DNA from: Candidatus Methanoperedens sp.
GTDB taxonomy: Archaea > Halobacteriota > Methanosarcinia > Methanosarcinales > Methanoperedenaceae
Assembly (NCBI GenBank): GCA_027460535.1
Contig: JAPZAR010000018.1
Coordinates: 37,146-69,145, forward strand
Reading direction: 5' to 3'
Length of the DNA stretch: 32,000 nucleotides
The position numbers and the translations under genes were made by a program. The notes below the pieces were generated by a model, which worked only from the letters and a program-made list of their open reading frames with translations, was not told where the DNA came from and did no database searches. This document shows, piece by piece, positions 3,317 through 11,230 of this stretch (position 1 is its first letter; the number at the start of each line of letters is the position of its first letter).

Positions 3317-3499
3317 TTATTGCGCTCCTGACTTCATGAGCCTCTGCACAGCCTGGTTGCCTATAGTTCTTTGAAGAAAGAGAATTTGTTCAACAGGTGA
3401 ACTGAGTGGCTGGCAGAAATTACCTTTCTGCACCTGTGATACCTGATTCTCTTTTTTTGTCTCGGGTGCTTTGACCGCTGTCTTGAAAGCTTCGCCCAT
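3317..3499 (-). pseudogene. Leader-only stub of the effector family (first 59 codons, then a premature stop)
   Basis: MGEAFKTAVKAPETKKENQVSQVQKGNF-QPLSSPVEQILFLQRTIGNQAVQRLMKSGA is near-identical to the N-termini of the 663-aa and 712-aa ORFs. Homology ends abruptly at about 3320, where the intact genes continue LQAKLRIGAPGD. Confidence 0.8.
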
Positions 3500-3745
3500 T
3501 TGTTATTTCCCTAAAAATTAAATGTTCATATATAGATTTATTAGCTCTTAACACTTCAAACTGCTAAGAAAATTGTAAAGACTATTCTATGGACTTCCAG
3601 CCTCTACTCCGTTTGATTTTAACTTTGAAATCGCATAAATTTTTTTGTTATCCTGAGACATCTTTTCAATCTTTTTCTGGTTAATGACCTTTGCCTCATA
3701 ATCATTCCAAGCAAACCATTTTTGATTATTCTCGCAGTAAAACAA
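3317..3745 (-). repeat. Copy C of the dispersed block [3' end of Cys-rich gene + intergenic + effector leader]
   Basis: Collinear with 8038-8457 by direct comparison of the DNA. Confidence 0.85.
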
Positions 3746-3778
3746 ATTTAGGCTGGGTATAGGGTTAATTCTTACCAA
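3587..3778 (-). pseudogene. 3' fragment of the Cys-rich gene (paralogous to 8317-8457)
   Basis: The 63-aa ORF ends CENNQKWFAWNDYEAKVINQKKIEKMSQDNKKIYAISKLKSNG, matching the last 45 or so residues of the 218-aa ORF. DNA homology runs from about 3590 to 3745 and is lost upstream. Confidence 0.8.
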
Positions 3779-3820
3779 AATTTTTGCAAAATAGGAAGCA
3801 GCTCTAATTCGTTTAAGCTT

Positions 3821-8215: not shown

Positions 8216-8572
8216 TGTTATTTTCCTAAATTAAATATTCTCATATGTATATAATAACTTTTAACATCTCAAACTGCCAAGAAAATTGCATGACTATTCT
8301 ATGTACTTCCAACCTCTCATCCATTTGATTTTGACTTTGAAATCGCATAAATTTTACTGTTATCCTGAGATATCTTTTCCATCATTTCCTGGTTAATGAC
8401 CATTGCCTCATAATCATTCCAAACATGCCATTTTTGATTATTCTCGCAGGTAAAACCCCTGCACGGCACAGGGCGGTGGTCGCGCACTGTGCAGTGGTAT
8501 GTATTCCTGTCCATATGAACGCAGTAGCCATCAGAATCATGTGCGATAAGATACGGTCTTCCGAACTCCCAG
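7860..8572 (-). repeat. Copy A (intact reference) of the dispersed block
   Basis: Contains the intact Cys-rich gene 3' end, a 101-nt intergenic region and the leader of the 663-aa effector. A fourth leader copy plus DUF4157 core lies at about 10505-11125. Confidence 0.85.
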
Positions 8573-8973
8573 CGGATGATGCCCTCATCCACATCCTGTT
8601 TAGACAGGGCAAAAGGAAATTTGCAGCACATAGCCTTGCATGTATGCAGCCTGCTCTCGCAGTCCACTTGGGTTTCATGTTCGAACGTGTATTTGTCTTC
8701 CTCCGGATCCTGATACATAAGTCCCATGCCACTCTCTACGAACTTCTTTACCAGCCGCTCTGCGACCTGATTTTTCCGCTTGTCCAGTTCCTCGATCGAG
8801 ATCAATCCCTTTTCGCTGAGCAGTTCGATGACTGCATAGAGGAATGAGGTTGATTCTAAGGTTTTTTTGGTATTGGAATTGATGCGGGTGTGGGTGTAGA
8901 GCAGACCTTCGGCTAATTCCTTGTGTTCTTCACGCAATAGCTCTTTATTTCTAATTTGAGTTTCTGTTTGCAT
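8317..8973 (-). CDS. Cys-rich protein, possibly of the YkgJ/CxxCxxCC zinc- or iron-chelating type
   Basis: 218-aa ORF with a helical N-terminal half and a C-terminal half carrying CESRLHTCKAMCCKF...GYCVHMD...YHCTV...PCRGFTCEN. Its 3' end is duplicated twice downstream, next to effector genes. Confidence 0.5.
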   Translation of the reverse strand: MQTETQIRNKELLREEHKELAEGLLYTHTRINSNTKKTLESTSFLYAVIELLSEKGLISIEELDKRKNQVAERLVKKFVESGMGLMYQDPEEDKYTFEHETQVDCESRLHTCKAMCCKFPFALSKQDVDEGIIRWEFGRPYLIAHDSDGYCVHMDRNTYHCTVRDHRPVPCRGFTCENNQKWHVWNDYEAMVINQEMMEKISQDNSKIYAISKSKSNG

Positions 8974-9337
8974 AAATATCTTTTTTCCAATTAAATTGCT
9001 TAATGAACTTTTTAAGAAAGGAATTTAATGTGGCAAATTACGAAAGGATTAATCAACGCATTGCATTATAGGCATTAAAGCGGAAACTTCTACAAAACAA
9101 AATGCGGCCGATCTCTTGCATGCACGGATGAGTAAGTTCAACATCCATCCTGCTCATACTCACTTACCGCATTCTCTTCACGATACCGGAAATATAGTTG
9201 ATCGATGGAGCTACAAGTCCCCGGCCTTTTGCGGGCATACGGACTTCAAAAGGGGTCGACCTGGCCCAAGAATGAAAACATCAAAGCCCCCAGAATAACT
9301 ATTCCTGGAATGTGCGATAAATTAGCCATTTGGCTTT

Positions 9338-11230
9338 TTAATAATGCCCCAGCTCAGCCTTGGGTAAATCGAGCTCATTAATGAAAGGCACATTTCCAGA
9401 CCGCCTATGTTGCAAGACCCAAAAAGCAATGAGTGCCGGTGAATACAAATCGGTTGTGTCAACTCCGAAATCATCACAAATAAGATACTGGAGTTCTATG
9501 TCATAGATGCGCAAGCTGAGATTGATACTAAAACGCGTAATACGGATACTTAAGCCCTGGGTTCCACCGATGATAGCTTTCAACGCCGTGCTGTCTGAGA
9601 AACCAAAGCTAACAGCAGGAACTCCCGCCGTGGGTAGAGTGATAGCGTTGCAATCGATCACTCCCGCAGCATCCATGCTAGTCAGCTGACGTTCGATTTC
9701 CCGGATCACGCTAGCGTGCAAGCGCGAGAAAGTCCCTGAAACAAGCGCATCCGCGCCCAGTGTACTGGAACTGTCATGAGTAAGCTTGGTTCCCGTGCCA
9801 CCAGAGAAATGGGTCACCATCCTCAACCCCTCCGCACCAGCTAGTCCGCCCAGTTCCAGGCGCATGCGGTTACGTAACTGGAAATCGAGAGTAAGGTGGT
9901 CAGCCTCCCATACAGCTGCCTGTTGTGCAACATTAGTACCTTTTAGTGGAGGAAAATCATTAGATCTAAAATCTGCATCCGCACCACAAGCTCCACGGTT
10001 AAAGATCTCTCTGGGCATAGCAGTACAGGGAATAACCCTAGTCTGTATCGGCCTTGGCGGAATCAGATTAGGAGAGCCTCCTCGCATCTGTATGGAGACA
10101 CGTCGGTTTGGAGAATATGATGCTGCAAATTCAGAGGTTTCGCCATGGGCAAACATTTCTATATCGGAGGCAGGTATACCAAGTCCTCCGCTCGCCGGGC
10201 TCATAAGTGCGTTTTTGACAGCCATGGCGCGGTTGCACGAGAGAGTCCAGTTGAGGGAATCGGTACCTTCGGGGCTGGCGTAACCATCAAGACGTAAATT
10301 CTCGTTAGCGCCAGAAGCGTGCCAATTGTTAACAAAGTTGTCGATGGCAGTCTCGTCACTGGAGCTCAGGTTAGCACTGTTTACTCGGAATATGATGTCT
10401 AGATTAGAGACACCAGGAGAGTCATGCGCGATTGGGCAGGCAAGACCACTGGGTAATTGGCTTGGATCACCTATGCGCTGAATTTGCGGTTGCACCAAGC
10501 CACCACTTTGTTGCACCGCATGCGTCAACTCATGCGCAATTAACCGCTGTCCCTCGATCGTTCTAGGTGTATACTCCCCCGCTCCGAAAACCATATCGCT
10601 GCCGATAGTGAACGCCCGCGCATTCACCGCTCGAGCCATTTCAGCCGCCCGTGTATCTATGTGCAAACGCACCTGGCCGAAATCCTGGCCAAAACGCGGC
10701 TCGAAAAAGGCGCGTTCGTTTTCTGATAAAGGCATGCCTCCTCCTTTGAGAGACTGGATATTTGATTCGATATCAGGATTTAATTCAGAGATACTACCTG
10801 ATGTTGCTTTCGCCTGAAGCCCTTCCTCCTCTTCTTCTACTGGTTTCCTTTGCAGCTTTTCTTCTTCGTCTTCTTCTTTTATCGGTTGCCGCTTCAGTTC
10901 ATCATTTTCACATTTCGGGCAAGCTCTCTCGATGTTGGGTATACCACTGGATGATGCCTGCGGCTCAGACATCCTCATCACTGCATCCGCCACCCTGTCA
11001 GCCTCCTGTTCGTAAACATCGCCGGGCGCGCCTATCCTAAGCTTAGCCTGCAGTACACCGGATTTCATGAGCTTCTGGACAGCCTGGTTGCCAATCGTTC
11101 TTTGAAGAAATAGAACTCTATCAACCGGTGAAATTCTGGTTTTTGAACAACATGGCTTTCTGGTCTTTGATACAAAATTCTGACTATTTGCCTCATGCTT
11201 TTTAACTTCTATTCTAGATATATTGCCCAT
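9338..11230 (-). CDS. eCIS-associated effector candidate: leader + DUF4157 (HExxH) + OmpA/MotB-like peptidoglycan-binding domain + unknown GC-rich C-terminal module
   Basis: GGGMPLSENERAFFEPRFGQDFGQVRLHID...LIAHELTHAVQQ gives the DUF4157 call. FRVNSANLSS...LRLDGYASPEGTDSLNWTLSCNRAMAVKNAL...NRRVSIQM is an OmpA_C-like pattern. The last 250 or so aa have no motif I recognise. AGGGAGG lies upstream of the ATG. Confidence 0.75.
   Translation of the reverse strand: MGNISRIEVKKHEANSQNFVSKTRKPCCSKTRISPVDRVLFLQRTIGNQAVQKLMKSGVLQAKLRIGAPGDVYEQEADRVADAVMRMSEPQASSSGIPNIERACPKCENDELKRQPIKEEDEEEKLQRKPVEEEEEGLQAKATSGSISELNPDIESNIQSLKGGGMPLSENERAFFEPRFGQDFGQVRLHIDTRAAEMARAVNARAFTIGSDMVFGAGEYTPRTIEGQRLIAHELTHAVQQSGGLVQPQIQRIGDPSQLPSGLACPIAHDSPGVSNLDIIFRVNSANLSSSDETAIDNFVNNWHASGANENLRLDGYASPEGTDSLNWTLSCNRAMAVKNALMSPASGGLGIPASDIEMFAHGETSEFAASYSPNRRVSIQMRGGSPNLIPPRPIQTRVIPCTAMPREIFNRGACGADADFRSNDFPPLKGTNVAQQAAVWEADHLTLDFQLRNRMRLELGGLAGAEGLRMVTHFSGGTGTKLTHDSSSTLGADALVSGTFSRLHASVIREIERQLTSMDAAGVIDCNAITLPTAGVPAVSFGFSDSTALKAIIGGTQGLSIRITRFSINLSLRIYDIELQYLICDDFGVDTTDLYSPALIAFWVLQHRRSGNVPFINELDLPKAELGHY

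Follow-up and report, generated by a model that had tools for sequence, protein, structure and literature searches.

The stretch of DNA analysed here (the window, 32,000 nucleotides from Candidatus Methanoperedens) carries four minus-strand open reading frames of 630, 663, 712 and 60 aa, exactly where the sequence-only reading had placed them. The three long frames, designated cargo genes 1 to 3, are all intact. They lie close to the structural genes of an extracellular contractile injection system (eCIS), as listed below.

9338-11230, minus strand: cargo gene 1, 630 aa (leader, acidic linker, DUF4157, OmpA-like domain and an end of ~235 aa)
10871-11230, minus strand: leader of cargo 1, aa 1-120, from alignments and the leader HMM (E 5.4e-45)
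10499-10732, minus strand: DUF4157/eCIS_core (PVC-metallopeptidase) core of cargo 1, with HELTH at aa 233
10088-10399, minus strand: OmpA-like domain (peptidoglycan-binding type) of cargo 1, from Pfam and NCBIfam
8317-8973, minus strand: CxxCxxCC gene (YkgJ-like, PF03692-type), 218 aa, directly upstream of cargo 2
6224-8215, minus strand: cargo gene 2, 663 aa (leader, acidic linker, DUF4157 and a conserved 418-aa C-terminal module)
7856-8215, minus strand: leader of cargo 2, aa 1-120, from alignments and the leader HMM
7490-7714, minus strand: DUF4157/eCIS_core core of cargo 2, with HELTH at aa 233
6227-7480, minus strand: C-terminal module of cargo 2, from its 90-member family of relatives
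5979-6198, minus strand: CxxCxxCC pseudogene fragment between cargo 2 and cargo 3, from the blastn repeat
3821-5959, minus strand: cargo gene 3, 712 aa (leader joined directly to a polymorphic-toxin body, without DUF4157)
5600-5959, minus strand: leader of cargo 3, aa 1-120, with the fusion point after ...QPIKEE
4610-4780, minus strand: PT-TG-like segment of cargo 3, aa 394-450 (IGLIPVVGD...DKWGRP...LPLAGGG)
3824-4345, minus strand: C-terminal tip of cargo 3, aa 539-712, from a toxin-type terminal domain family
3587-3743, minus strand: second CxxCxxCC fragment (last ~50 codons), then a copy of the intergenic region, from the blastn repeat
3317-3499, minus strand: leader stump, 60 aa, leader residues 1-59, from alignment and blastn
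16222-32000, minus strand: eCIS structural genes by Pfam (fibre, P2_I, two Baseplate_J, gp25, PAAR, VgrG-type spike, gpD-like hub, tube and the end of a tape-measure-like ORF)

The similarity of the four N-termini, already noticed by the sequence-only reading, is evident both in the protein alignment and in the DNA self-matches. Over the first 120 aa, the leaders of cargo 3 and cargo 1 are 86% and 68% identical, respectively, to that of cargo 2. Specifically, the leader is bipartite, with a basic, variable N-terminus leading to a first block (...LFLQRTIGNQAVQ.L.KSG), then to a second block (LQAKLRIG.PGD.YEQEADRVA..VMRM, hereafter block 2) and to a CxxC knuckle. No Pfam or NCBIfam model covers it, and it contains no Sec h-region, twin-arginine motif or lipobox, that is, none of the features of a Sec, Tat or lipoprotein signal, which the earlier reading had itself raised as a possible objection. 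Purifying selection on the leader core (aa 34-88) is strong in each of the three genes, including the one lacking DUF4157, with a dN/dS of 0.03-0.08 at a dS of 0.5-0.76; therefore, the copies are old and have been retained by selection at the protein level.

Downstream of the leader, the proteins had been described as diverging completely. This holds for cargo 3 past residue ~120, whereas cargo 1 and cargo 2 remain similar through the acidic linker and DUF4157 up to about aa 250, where the similarity is lost. Pfam bears out all three DUF4157 (PF13699, eCIS_core) calls, placing the domain at aa 167-244 of cargo 1 (E 5.6e-30) and at aa 168-242 of cargo 2 (E 5e-30), and giving no match in cargo 3. 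The HExxH motif is found in the DUF4157 of two of the three cargo proteins.

The OmpA-like domain attributed to cargo 1 was recovered by Pfam (PF00691, aa 281-377, 40.9 bits against a cut-off of 27.2) and by NCBIfam OmpA-type matches at aa 278-381; for the final ~235 aa, the fetched loci contain no homologue. The 418-aa C-terminal module of cargo 2 is predicted to consist of an SH3-like barrel, a coiled coil and a helical domain (AF2 model, pLDDT 95.5); it contains the motifs QESHMG and AYNGSG and has 90 relatives, mostly fused to DUF4157 as well. For this protein the DUF4157 assignment stood, but the 'lysozyme-like' label, short motifs apart, found no support in Pfam, in the PDB sequence search or in Foldseek.

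Cargo 3, of which a Candidatus Methanoperedens MAG encodes an identical protein (P0121), comprises after its leader a pre-toxin region, a PT-TG-like segment, a linker and a variable tip. No direct Pfam match to PT-TG was obtained in this protein; its segment aligns with a related protein (P0129) whose residues 358-412 match PF14449 at E 2.7e-7, so that the proposed PT-TG assignment appears to hold by transitive homology only. In the family of the tip, H599 and H600 are nearly invariant and H627 is invariant; among 76 representatives, belonging to proteins of 66-3144 aa, the domain nearly always (in at least 53) sits at the extreme C-terminus. The AF2 model of the tip (pLDDT 95.6) has no fold match in the PDB. 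The 'AHH-like' label given to the tip, again apart from short motifs, was supported neither by Pfam nor by the PDB sequence search or Foldseek, and no AHH match was found among the best 25 of the 41 Pfam families matched by 61 members of the tip family.

At the DNA level, similarity between the repeated segments is far beyond chance, as indicated by the blastn self-matches of 5599-5980 with 7855-8234 (87%, E 1.7e-130), of 7493-8117 with 10508-11132 (80%, E 1e-164) and of 3322-3743 with 8038-8456 (89%, E 6e-155). The sequence-only reading had overlooked that, on the upstream side of the leaders, the repeated DNA also takes in the 3' end of the CxxCxxCC gene (8317-8973), whose own Pfam match is weak (E 4.2e-4, 21.4 bits, under the cut-off of 23). 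A homologue of this gene directly precedes leader genes in seven loci from genomes and, among metagenome loci, in about 10 of the 10 that were informative; an independent CxxCxxCC-plus-leader repeat of 1.1 kb is present in Methanosarcina sp. Mfa9 (L002). Within the array, the fragment at 5979-6198 is 86% identical to 8341-8571, with internal deletions. The 60-aa frame matches leader residues 1-59 and then ends, its homology breaking at about 3322, at the stop codon, beyond which the DNA is unrelated and AT-rich; comparable stumps end the arrays in L002 and in a second locus (L057). It is thus a truncated leader, as its 'leader only' description implied, but a recombination stump rather than a fourth payload. 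Judging from the anatomy of the repeats, we infer that the array may have expanded through recombination within a block of homology comprising the CxxCxxCC 3' end, the intergenic region and the leader; the CxxCxxCC fragments behind cargo 2 and cargo 3 and the leader stump at the distal end would be its traces.

These remnants raise the question of whether the array is mostly duplication debris, namely one working gene accompanied by decaying copies, with no multi-payload function. The segment 3317-3499 is clearly a stump, and two CxxCxxCC copies are pseudogene fragments, one of them with a frameshifting deletion. Nevertheless, the three long frames are intact, their leaders are under the strong purifying selection described above, the C-termini each fall in a family conserved elsewhere and two of them yield very confident structural models. 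We consequently regard the debris explanation as very improbable.

The genomic setting was then considered. Just upstream of the window are found an AAA+ ATPase gene of the Afp15/Pvc15 type, a Pvc16_N cap, a sheath and two gp19 tube genes; together with the structural genes in the window they make up a complete eCIS cluster, with the array at its 3' end and on the same strand. Its fibre gene may point to a released particle rather than a cell-anchored machine as in haloarchaea. Between the fibre gene and the array are ~3.7 kb of low-GC DNA encoding an M48/HtpX-like peptidase and a TPR protein, and no immunity genes are present in the array.

This intervening DNA would suit a scenario in which the genes encode ordinary polymorphic toxins that use another export route and merely sit beside the eCIS without being carried by it, as would the finding that the pre-toxin, PT-TG and variable-tip body of cargo 3 also occurs leaderless, for example in Thermomonospora. 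Such a route is, in our opinion, highly unlikely. Neither a Sec, Tat or lipoprotein signal nor a trafficking domain of the T7SS, T6SS or Rhs type is seen in the proteins; immunity genes are missing; DUF4157 is a core eCIS marker at toxin N-termini, PF13699 having an eCIS odds ratio of 2614 (Geller 2021, PMC8213781); and most long loci carry leader genes together with eCIS genes.

The latter observation comes from a survey of other genomes for the leader on other warheads, a check put forward by the sequence-only reading. The leader gave 344 short matches in the protein database and occurs in at least 539 genomic stretches from Methanosarcina, Methanoperedens, ANME and many bacterial phyla. In 78 loci, 157 leader ORFs were recovered, 134 of which are of at least 250 aa (DUF4157 present in 118, absent in 16). 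Leader genes are usually in tandem, and arrays of 3-5 genes with C-termini all different are common; over the 78 loci, 128 leader-linked C-termini fall into 95 unrelated clusters, and of the 38 loci spanning at least 15 kb, 23 or more also carry eCIS structural genes. Pfam analysis of 116 leader-linked C-termini returned OmpA (10), PG_binding_1 (7) and Aspzincin_M35 (4), in addition to SH3_3, LysM, lysozymes, amidase, YkuD, ADP-ribosyltransferase, GH-E and NS nucleases and transglutaminase. The recognisable ones among these 116 are therefore enzymes, toxins and cell-wall-binding domains, and not the homologous structural proteins that had been named as a possible counter-finding. The cargo of close relatives (90-92% identity in the CxxCxxCC protein) has nothing beyond the leader and DUF4157 in common with that of the window, and in no case the C-termini.

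The frequent association with DUF4157 allows a different view of the leader. The leader, or at least block 2 (PGD.YEQEADRVA), could be a structural, integral part of the PVC-metallopeptidase, such as a pro-peptide or the helix providing the third zinc ligand, and its conservation would then reflect autoproteolytic toxin release, with addressing left to something else or to the first ~30 basic residues only. Besides the 118 of 134 long leader ORFs with DUF4157, block 2 precedes the DUF4157 core in 132 of 161 DUF4157 ORFs and is the sole detectable leader part in many bacterial DUF4157 proteins. Occasionally it follows the HExxH core, lying right behind it in P0122 and L098, as expected for a gluzincin third helix; the PVC-metallopeptidase signature, HExxHxxQ-E, has its Glu on the third helix (Zhang 2012, PMC3482391), and the PF13699 model stops at HExxHxxQ. 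On the other hand, the full leader occurs without DUF4157 in cargo 3 and in 15 other long proteins, block 2 of cargo 3 still evolves at a dN/dS of 0.03-0.08, and 23 DUF4157 ORFs have no leader match. Moreover, loading of the AlgoCIS proteins Cgo1 and Cgo2 is lost upon deletion of the N-terminal domain and retained upon deletion of DUF4157, which is dispensable (bioRxiv 10.64898/2026.05.27.728243). A peptidase part in place of an address seems to us unlikely, though less so than the two alternatives above, and the two roles are not mutually exclusive.

Taken together, we consider it probable that the genes form the cargo (effector) array of an eCIS in Candidatus Methanoperedens, in agreement with the multi-payload arsenal first proposed. 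This interpretation draws on the same-strand eCIS neighbourhood, the non-Sec/Tat leader and the selection acting on it, the family survey and the AlgoCIS Cgo1/Cgo2 experiments. On the model of AlgoCIS and PVC, each protein would be directed by its leader to the AAA+ ATPase of the eCIS (Afp15/Pvc15/Alg15 type) and loaded by it into the tube lumen, and contraction of the sheath would deliver the protein to the target cell. DUF4157 would be an optional extra, perhaps a peptidase with a releasing role. The exchangeable warheads, whose enzymatic activities we likewise infer, would be an OmpA-type cell-wall-binding module with a further C-terminal domain in cargo 1, the conserved SH3-like/coiled-coil/helical module in cargo 2, and, in cargo 3, a polymorphic-toxin body that ends in a new His-His...His tip.

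The N-terminal signal sequences of the PVC payloads Pnf and Pdp1 are reportedly recognised through Pvc15 (Jiang et al. 2022). The leader described here resembles PVC payload leaders in being a hydrophilic, non-Sec N-terminus of ~50 or more residues, common to the payloads of one system and with a proposed AAA+ ATPase route. PVC leaders are system-specific, and sequence similarity to the present leader is not expected; PVC payloads are not known to carry DUF4157.

The closest parallel in architecture, as distinct from sequence comparison, is AlgoCIS of Algoriphagus machipongonensis, with several cargo genes in the eCIS cluster that have a similar N-terminal domain, DUF4157 and differing C-terminal domains, an AAA+ ATPase in the cluster and cargo without a classical signal peptide; Cgo1 and Cgo2 fill the tube lumen (Xu 2022, PMC8894135). 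Here, in contrast, the host is archaeal, three cargoes and a stump are present, one cargo has no DUF4157 at all and a CxxCxxCC gene sits among the array members.

PVC-metallopeptidase/DUF4157 toxins likewise join a constant HExxH-containing N-terminus to variable C-terminal toxins, with several per genome, euryarchaea included, and immunity genes frequently missing (Zhang and Aravind 2012, PMC3482391; PMC8213781), and the PVC-linked C-termini already on record include 'Tox-OmpA' (PMC3482391). Those descriptions centre on DUF4157, whereas the common unit here is the ~90-120 aa upstream of it, also found without DUF4157, and recombination scars (the CxxCxxCC fragments and the leader stump) are visible in the DNA. 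In Halogeometricum borinquense, an archaeon whose contractile injection system ('archaeal T6SS') is similarly accompanied by several DUF4157 proteins, five of these are secreted in a CIS- and sheath-dependent manner (PMC11566945); that machine is anchored to the cell, and its toxins, unlike the present array, which has no immunity ORFs, have immunity partners encoded downstream. Finally, Rhs/CdiA loci with orphan cassettes likewise combine a constant N-terminus with a variable C-terminal tip and expand through recombination in the conserved part, and cargo 3 itself has a pre-toxin body of the PT-TG type. However, full-length members of this array keep the whole N-terminus as complete genes, and what is left over consists of 5' stumps and pieces of the upstream gene instead of displaced 3' toxin/immunity orphans, with no immunity genes.

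In conclusion, the combination of a constant N-terminus with a variable toxin end has already been published (Zhang 2012; Geller 2021; Xu 2022), and the array is a clear but expected case of a known way to arm injection machines. The AlgoCIS loading sequences are described as disordered and not conserved between systems (bioRxiv 10.64898/2026.05.27.728243). Unlike these system-specific regions, the leader reported here is a family strongly conserved across phyla and domains of life, and may therefore do something more, or something different.

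We found on the minus strand of the window the four open reading frames (ORFs) that the sequence-only reading had described as starting with almost the same sequence:

9338-11230, minus strand: cargo 1, ORF of 630 aa
6224-8215, minus strand: cargo 2, ORF of 663 aa
3821-5959, minus strand: cargo 3, ORF of 712 aa
3317-3499, minus strand: leader stump, ORF of 60 aa

Residues 1-120 of the three long proteins, referred to as the shared leader, align without gaps and end with ...CPKCE.DELKRQPIKEE; over these 120 aa, the identity to the leader of the 663-aa protein is 86% for the 712-aa protein and 68% for the 630-aa protein. 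The copies are also alike at the DNA level, with blastn self-matches at E 1e-87 to 1e-164, which excludes chance as the source of the similarity. The 60-aa ORF corresponds to leader residues 1-59, followed by a stop. As proposed, the leader is followed by unrelated C-termini. Specifically, the 712-aa protein is unrelated to the other two past residue 120, and the 630-aa and 663-aa proteins remain alike through an acidic (E-rich, LQxK) linker and a DUF4157 domain (PF13699, eCIS_core) up to about residue 250, diverging thereafter. This domain, with HELTH at aa 233 in both proteins (E ~5e-30), lies N-terminal to the variable part and maps to aa 167-244 of cargo 1, above the Pfam cut-off. The Pfam scan detected no DUF4157 in the 712-aa protein, again in line with the first description; this protein is identical to one from a Candidatus Methanoperedens sp. 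MAG (locus tag O8C66_14255).

The leader is composed of a variable, basic stretch (residues 1-33), a first conserved block (residues 34-60, SP.(E/D).ILFLQRTIGNQAVQ.L.KSG) and a second one (residues 61-88, LQAKLRIG.PGD.YEQEADRVA..VMRM), next to which lies a CxxC knuckle. A Sec, Tat or lipoprotein signal, the competing identity considered in the sequence-only reading, is ruled out: neither a hydrophobic h-region nor a twin-arginine (RR) motif nor a lipobox is found in the first ~40 residues. Hydropathy is low (maximum Kyte-Doolittle 15-mer 0.55-0.86) and the net charge is positive. Comparison of the core (aa 34-88) between paralogues gave dS values of 0.49-0.76 and dN values of 0.016-0.062, with dN/dS of 0.03-0.08; therefore, the copies are old and have been kept alike by selection at the protein level, and this purifying selection holds in the DUF4157-less 712-aa gene too. 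The leader matches no Pfam (24,736 models) or NCBIfam model, no mention of its motifs was found in the literature searched, and no solved structure was found for the leader together with DUF4157.

Some features of the linker are worth recording. After the leader core (aa ~100-140; window 7856-7900, 10871-10915 and 5600-5650), an IQR.C..C knuckle is present in about half of the family, and its occurrence is not associated with that of the CxxCxxCC gene described below (Fisher p = 0.56 and 1.0). In many loci DUF4157 is preceded by acidic repeats, one to four in number, of the form EEEEE.LQ(A/T/R)KP, and the fusion point of the 712-aa protein is the exact start of the acidic linker.

The array lies next to the structural genes of an extracellular contractile injection system (eCIS), which occupy 16222-32000 on the minus strand, the same strand as the leader genes, and encode a 1152-aa fibre, Tail_P2_I, two Baseplate_J proteins, gp25, PAAR, a VgrG-type spike, a gpD-like hub and a CIS tube protein. 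Past the window edge, as read from two contigs carrying the same tube gene (L081, L082), follow a 717-aa AAA+ ATPase (WHD + AAA), a Pvc16_N cap, a sheath, two gp19 tube proteins and an 815-aa tape-measure-like protein; the ATPase, of the Afp15/Pvc15/Alg15 type, adjoins the cap gene ~17 kb upstream of the fibre gene. Taken together, these genes make up a complete machine with the leader genes at its 3' end, the usual location of eCIS toxin genes (PMC8213781). In the gaps after the three cargo genes (364, 264 and 321 nt) no immunity gene was detected: apart from CxxCxxCC fragments, they contain no minus-strand ORF that reaches 50 aa. A scan for promoters and terminators with bacterial models, which are unsuited to an archaeal host, gave nothing above the shuffled background.

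Other genes surround the array. Just after the fibre gene, a 76-aa coiled-coil ORF (15978-16208) with homologues in six related loci (L012, L037, L049, L050, L061 and L073) is a candidate for a small, conserved accessory protein of the eCIS. The fibre gene and the array are separated by a low-GC island at 12-16 kb in the window (12668-14862, 11519-12502; GC 0.33-0.37 versus 0.43-0.50 around it), which encodes an M48/HtpX-like zinc peptidase of 577 aa, an overlapping ORF of 154 aa and a TPR protein with eight repeats and a C-terminal membrane anchor. Across the 78 leader loci compared, neither the peptidase nor the 154-aa ORF has a homologue, and the TPR protein matches ORFs in four (L024, L041, L048, L067). 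Two genes downstream of the array encode a 336-aa protein (1716-2726) with weak matches to NAL1-like proteins (trypsin-fold serine protease) and a 118-aa four-helix membrane protein (2769-3125); both lack homologues in related loci and thus are probably not part of the system.

The three C-terminal parts were characterised individually. In cargo 1, the OmpA-like domain initially proposed is well supported: PF00691 matches aa 281-377 with 40.9 bits against a cut-off of 27.2, and alignments to Pal/OmpA structures and NCBIfam models agree, delimiting a domain of about aa 278-381. The Asp of the 'TD' motif and the Arg of OmpA-like domains usually contact peptidoglycan. In the alignment of cargo 1 the Asp is replaced (GYASPEG) and the Arg (CNRA) is retained; peptidoglycan binding by this domain is not assured. 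The last ~235 residues of the protein have no relative in any compared locus. A 'Tox-OmpA' module is already among the PVC-linked C-termini listed by Zhang et al. (PMC3482391).

The 418-aa C-terminus of cargo 2 has 90 relatives that form a family with it; DUF4157 is fused to most of these too, and members occur for example in Aquimarina longa, Bacteroidia and Phycisphaerales. Its AlphaFold model (pLDDT 95.5) comprises an SH3-like barrel, a long helical hairpin (coiled coil) and a helical domain, and Foldseek searches of PDB and BFVD returned only SH3-like matches to the small N-terminal barrel (E 0.015-0.1). The window protein has no Pfam match in this region, and a profile of it found nothing among PDB sequences. 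When 58 family members were compared with Pfam, Muramidase matched two (best E 0.011) and SLT one (E 0.048). Alignment with hhalign to an approximate goose lysozyme sequence placed QESHMG on the catalytic RESHAG, but only at E 0.19. None of these sequence, profile, fold and hhalign comparisons gave a significant match to a lysozyme or GH23 lytic transglycosylase. The term 'lysozyme-like', originally applied to this module, is a motif-level guess.

In cargo 3 the leader is followed, in order, by a conserved pre-toxin region of ~270 aa, a PT-TG-like segment (aa 394-450), a helical linker and a tip of 174 aa. There is no direct match to PF14449 (PT-TG) at E up to 5; however, aa 394-450 align to the related database protein P0129 (E 5.4e-11 to the query), whose equivalent residues match PF14449 at 2.7e-7, and another relative, P0123, matches it weakly (0.0073). 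The pre-toxin body occurs elsewhere with DUF4157 (P0122) and without any leader, for example in Thermomonospora. The last module is:

3824-4345, minus strand: cargo 3 tip, aa 539-712, terminal domain family with 76 representatives

Members of this family carry the domain at the extreme C-terminus in at least 53 of the 76 cases, in otherwise unrelated proteins of 66-3144 aa, a few of which also contain eCIS_core, PG_binding_1 or the leader. His599 and His600 are nearly invariant and His627 is invariant. The tip had been called AHH-like, and it does contain an EAHH motif plus a downstream invariant His. An AHH nuclease (PF14412, HNH/EndoVII fold) was nevertheless rejected, this HH...H motif being the only likeness: the family has no Pfam model, neither AHH nor HNH matches the window tip or figures among the best 25 of the 41 Pfam families obtained from 61 family members, and the very confident model (pLDDT 95.6) has no fold match in PDB by Foldseek (best E 1.5), a search that may miss a small beta-beta-alpha metal finger. 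The most fitting description of the tip is that of an uncharacterised terminal domain of toxin type.

A protein search with the leader gave 344 matches, all short owing to how candidates are collected and, except for one identical fragment, at 53-84% identity; they derive from Methanoperedens, Methanosarcinales, ANME-2, Deltaproteobacteria, Omnitrophica and others. Scanning one genome per species, we found at least 539 leader coding stretches, in Methanosarcina, Methanoperedens, Methanococcoides, ANME-1, Nitrosopumilus and many bacterial phyla. The 78 loci kept contain 157 leader ORFs, 134 of which are at least 250 aa long, and 23 further DUF4157 ORFs without a leader match. Leader genes often stand in tandem, three to five to an array, as in Methanosarcina sp. 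Mfa9 (L002), Methanosarcina sp. DH2 (L017), L005, L011, L013 and L069. Structural eCIS genes were detected in 31 of the 78 loci, in 23 of the 38 that reach 15 kb and in 16 of the 25 of 20 kb, counts that are lower bounds given the simple phmmer searches with the window's proteins.

The survey bore out the expectation that the same leader would be found on other warheads: 128 leader-linked C-terminal parts fall into 95 unrelated clusters, and within one array they are almost always different. Pfam searches on 116 of these C-termini recognised OmpA (10), PG_binding_1 (7), Aspzincin_M35 (4), SH3_3 (3) and LysM (2), together with phage lysozymes, amidase, YkuD, cell-wall hydrolase, transglutaminase, a calpain-type protease, ADP-ribosyltransferase, GH-E and NS endonucleases, annexin and ankyrin. 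None of the recognised C-termini is a structural protein; they are enzymes, toxins or wall-binding modules. In addition, in L069 and L083, whose CxxCxxCC protein is 90-92% identical to that of the window, the cargo matches the window's only in leader and DUF4157, which indicates that warheads turn over quickly.

The DUF4157 core is present in 118 of the 134 long leader ORFs and missing from 16. These counts bear on the main rival to a tag function, namely that leader block 2 is part of the metallopeptidase. Leader proteins without DUF4157 weaken it; on the other hand, a block of the PGD.YEQEADRVA type directly follows the HExxH core in P0122 (aa 203-233) and in L098 2110-2898 (aa 147-173), which hints at a helix packing against, or completing, the metallopeptidase site. 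Such a permuted order is a minority observation, seen in only one of 161 ORFs besides P0122, and a common circular permutation was discarded. A role as a tag and a role in the peptidase could hold together. A conserved family of 97-aa leader-only proteins was also noted (P0038, P0048, P0063 and P0117), all ending ...PEP....(P/T)PT. In L079 such a leader-only gene of 97 aa (5813-6106) comes right behind the AAA+ ATPase of the eCIS, and 82 nt further downstream begins a DUF4157 gene of its own, 386 aa long (6188-7348), so that leader and DUF4157 can be split into two genes.

The duplicated DNA of the array begins upstream of the leader, not at the leader, and includes parts of a further gene:

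8317-8973: CxxCxxCC (YkgJ-like) gene, 218 aa; PF03692 match below threshold, typical Cys pattern
5979-6198: CxxCxxCC fragment
3587-3743: CxxCxxCC fragment

Specifically, 3322-3743 matches 8038-8456, a stretch comprising the last ~50 CxxCxxCC codons, the whole 101-nt intergenic region and leader codons 1-59. Similarly, 5979-6198 matches 8341-8571; this fragment carries a frameshifting deletion and is joined to the 712-aa gene ~18 nt before the ATG. Each fragment begins 25-42 nt past the stop codon of the preceding cargo gene. This is the pattern that cassette insertion via a homology block (CxxCxxCC 3' end, intergenic region and leader) would leave, unequal crossing-over being the alternative origin. 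The homology of the 60-aa ORF ends at ~3322, exactly at its stop codon, with unrelated AT-rich DNA beyond. The initial label 'leader only' holds for the sequence of this ORF; a function as a leader-only payload was rejected on the evidence of the repeat boundaries, in favour of a distal recombination scar.

An independent 1.1-kb repeat of the same kind is found in Methanosarcina sp. Mfa9, where a 70-aa stump (L002 15235-15447) ends at the same leader position as that of the window. In addition, full-length proteins with block 1 only, fused to a C-terminal module, occur at L006 8408-9364 and L018 16257-17375. The presence of stumps and block-1-only proteins in unrelated genomes identifies the junction after ...KSG as a recurrent breakpoint. 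Short stumps ending after block 1 (...LQRTIGNQAVQ.L.KSG, ~aa 60) were also seen at L057 4138-4356 and 2532-2687.

The association between the CxxCxxCC gene and the leader extends beyond the window. Seven of the 78 genome loci, some of them bacterial, have a homologue next to a leader gene. A search with the CxxCxxCC protein itself gave 16 metagenome loci, and in ~10 of the 10 with enough DNA to be informative the gene immediately downstream on the same strand is a leader (+DUF4157) gene. The loci of archaea and bacteria behind this link, in which the gene lies directly upstream of leader/DUF4157 genes wherever the DNA is informative, are L001, L002, L009, L026, L030, L059, L069 and L083-L098. 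The protein might serve as a chaperone, an adaptor or a regulator. No mention of a link between CxxCxxCC proteins and eCIS was found in the literature, and no solved structure was found for the protein.

By its testable features, the array belongs with the DUF4157/PVC-metallopeptidase eCIS cargo (Zhang 2012, Geller 2021, Xu 2022). With cargo of the Cgo1/Cgo2 type from the Algoriphagus machipongonensis system (AlgoCIS) it shares position and strand in the cluster, a hydrophilic common N-terminus and an ATPase in the cluster, all known here from sequence; the DUF4157 feature fits the 630-aa and 663-aa proteins, and the 712-aa protein is a DUF4157-less variant, like the 16 of 134 elsewhere. In AlgoCIS, deletion of the N-terminal domain abolishes loading and deletion of DUF4157 does not (bioRxiv 10.64898/2026.05.27.728243). 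By analogy, the N-terminal region would address the cargo to the AAA+ ATPase, which would load the tube; published work further suggests that DUF4157 might act as a releasing peptidase and that contraction would deliver the C-terminal warheads. Beneath this putative route stand the observed anatomy, selection, synteny with a complete eCIS, family-wide arrays and the toxin or enzyme nature of many sister C-termini.

As in classical polymorphic toxins, a constant N-terminal part is combined with a variable C-terminal tip exchanged by recombination. Unlike the window array, however, those systems have cognate downstream immunity genes, and their leftovers are displaced 3' orphan cassettes rather than 5' stumps. 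The lack of immunity genes and the wall-directed modules, in an archaeon without murein, suggest targets unlike the producer, plausibly bacteria.

A wider reading, which we put forward tentatively and consider rather unlikely, is that the leader, ~90 residues with the blocks LQRTIGNQAV and PGD.YEQEADRVA, separable from DUF4157 and without a Pfam or NCBIfam model, is a discrete cargo-addressing domain of archaea and bacteria that works with a dedicated, strictly syntenic metal-cluster protein, the CxxCxxCC protein, and that the CxxCxxCC-leader junction serves eCIS loci as a recombination platform for warhead capture. On this reading the leader would amount to a portable loading tag of nearly universal use and would mark eCIS cargo far better than DUF4157 does, covering DUF4157-less cargo as well, and cell-wall-directed modules in a peptidoglycan-free archaeon would point to bacterial targets.

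In conclusion, the basic picture is already in the literature and is unchanged by these findings; the new details are a conserved, unmodelled leader family separable from DUF4157, the CxxCxxCC synteny, visible recombination scars and the His-His tip family. In eCIS engineering, the sequences that direct loading are currently regarded as disordered and specific to each system; a conserved leader family that spans archaea and many bacterial phyla, on proteins with DUF4157 as well as on proteins lacking it, would offer a simple sequence handle for listing cargo and could perhaps serve as a transferable tag. Methanosarcina sp. Mfa9, which is in culture and fully sequenced, carries a homologous array of four genes plus a stump and provides a tractable experimental system. 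On the question, treated as open in PMC12352652, of an attack on bacteria by archaeal injection systems, both a Methanoperedens eCIS with predicted OmpA-type wall-binding cargo and the dominance of peptidoglycan-directed domains among leader-linked C-termini are suggestive.
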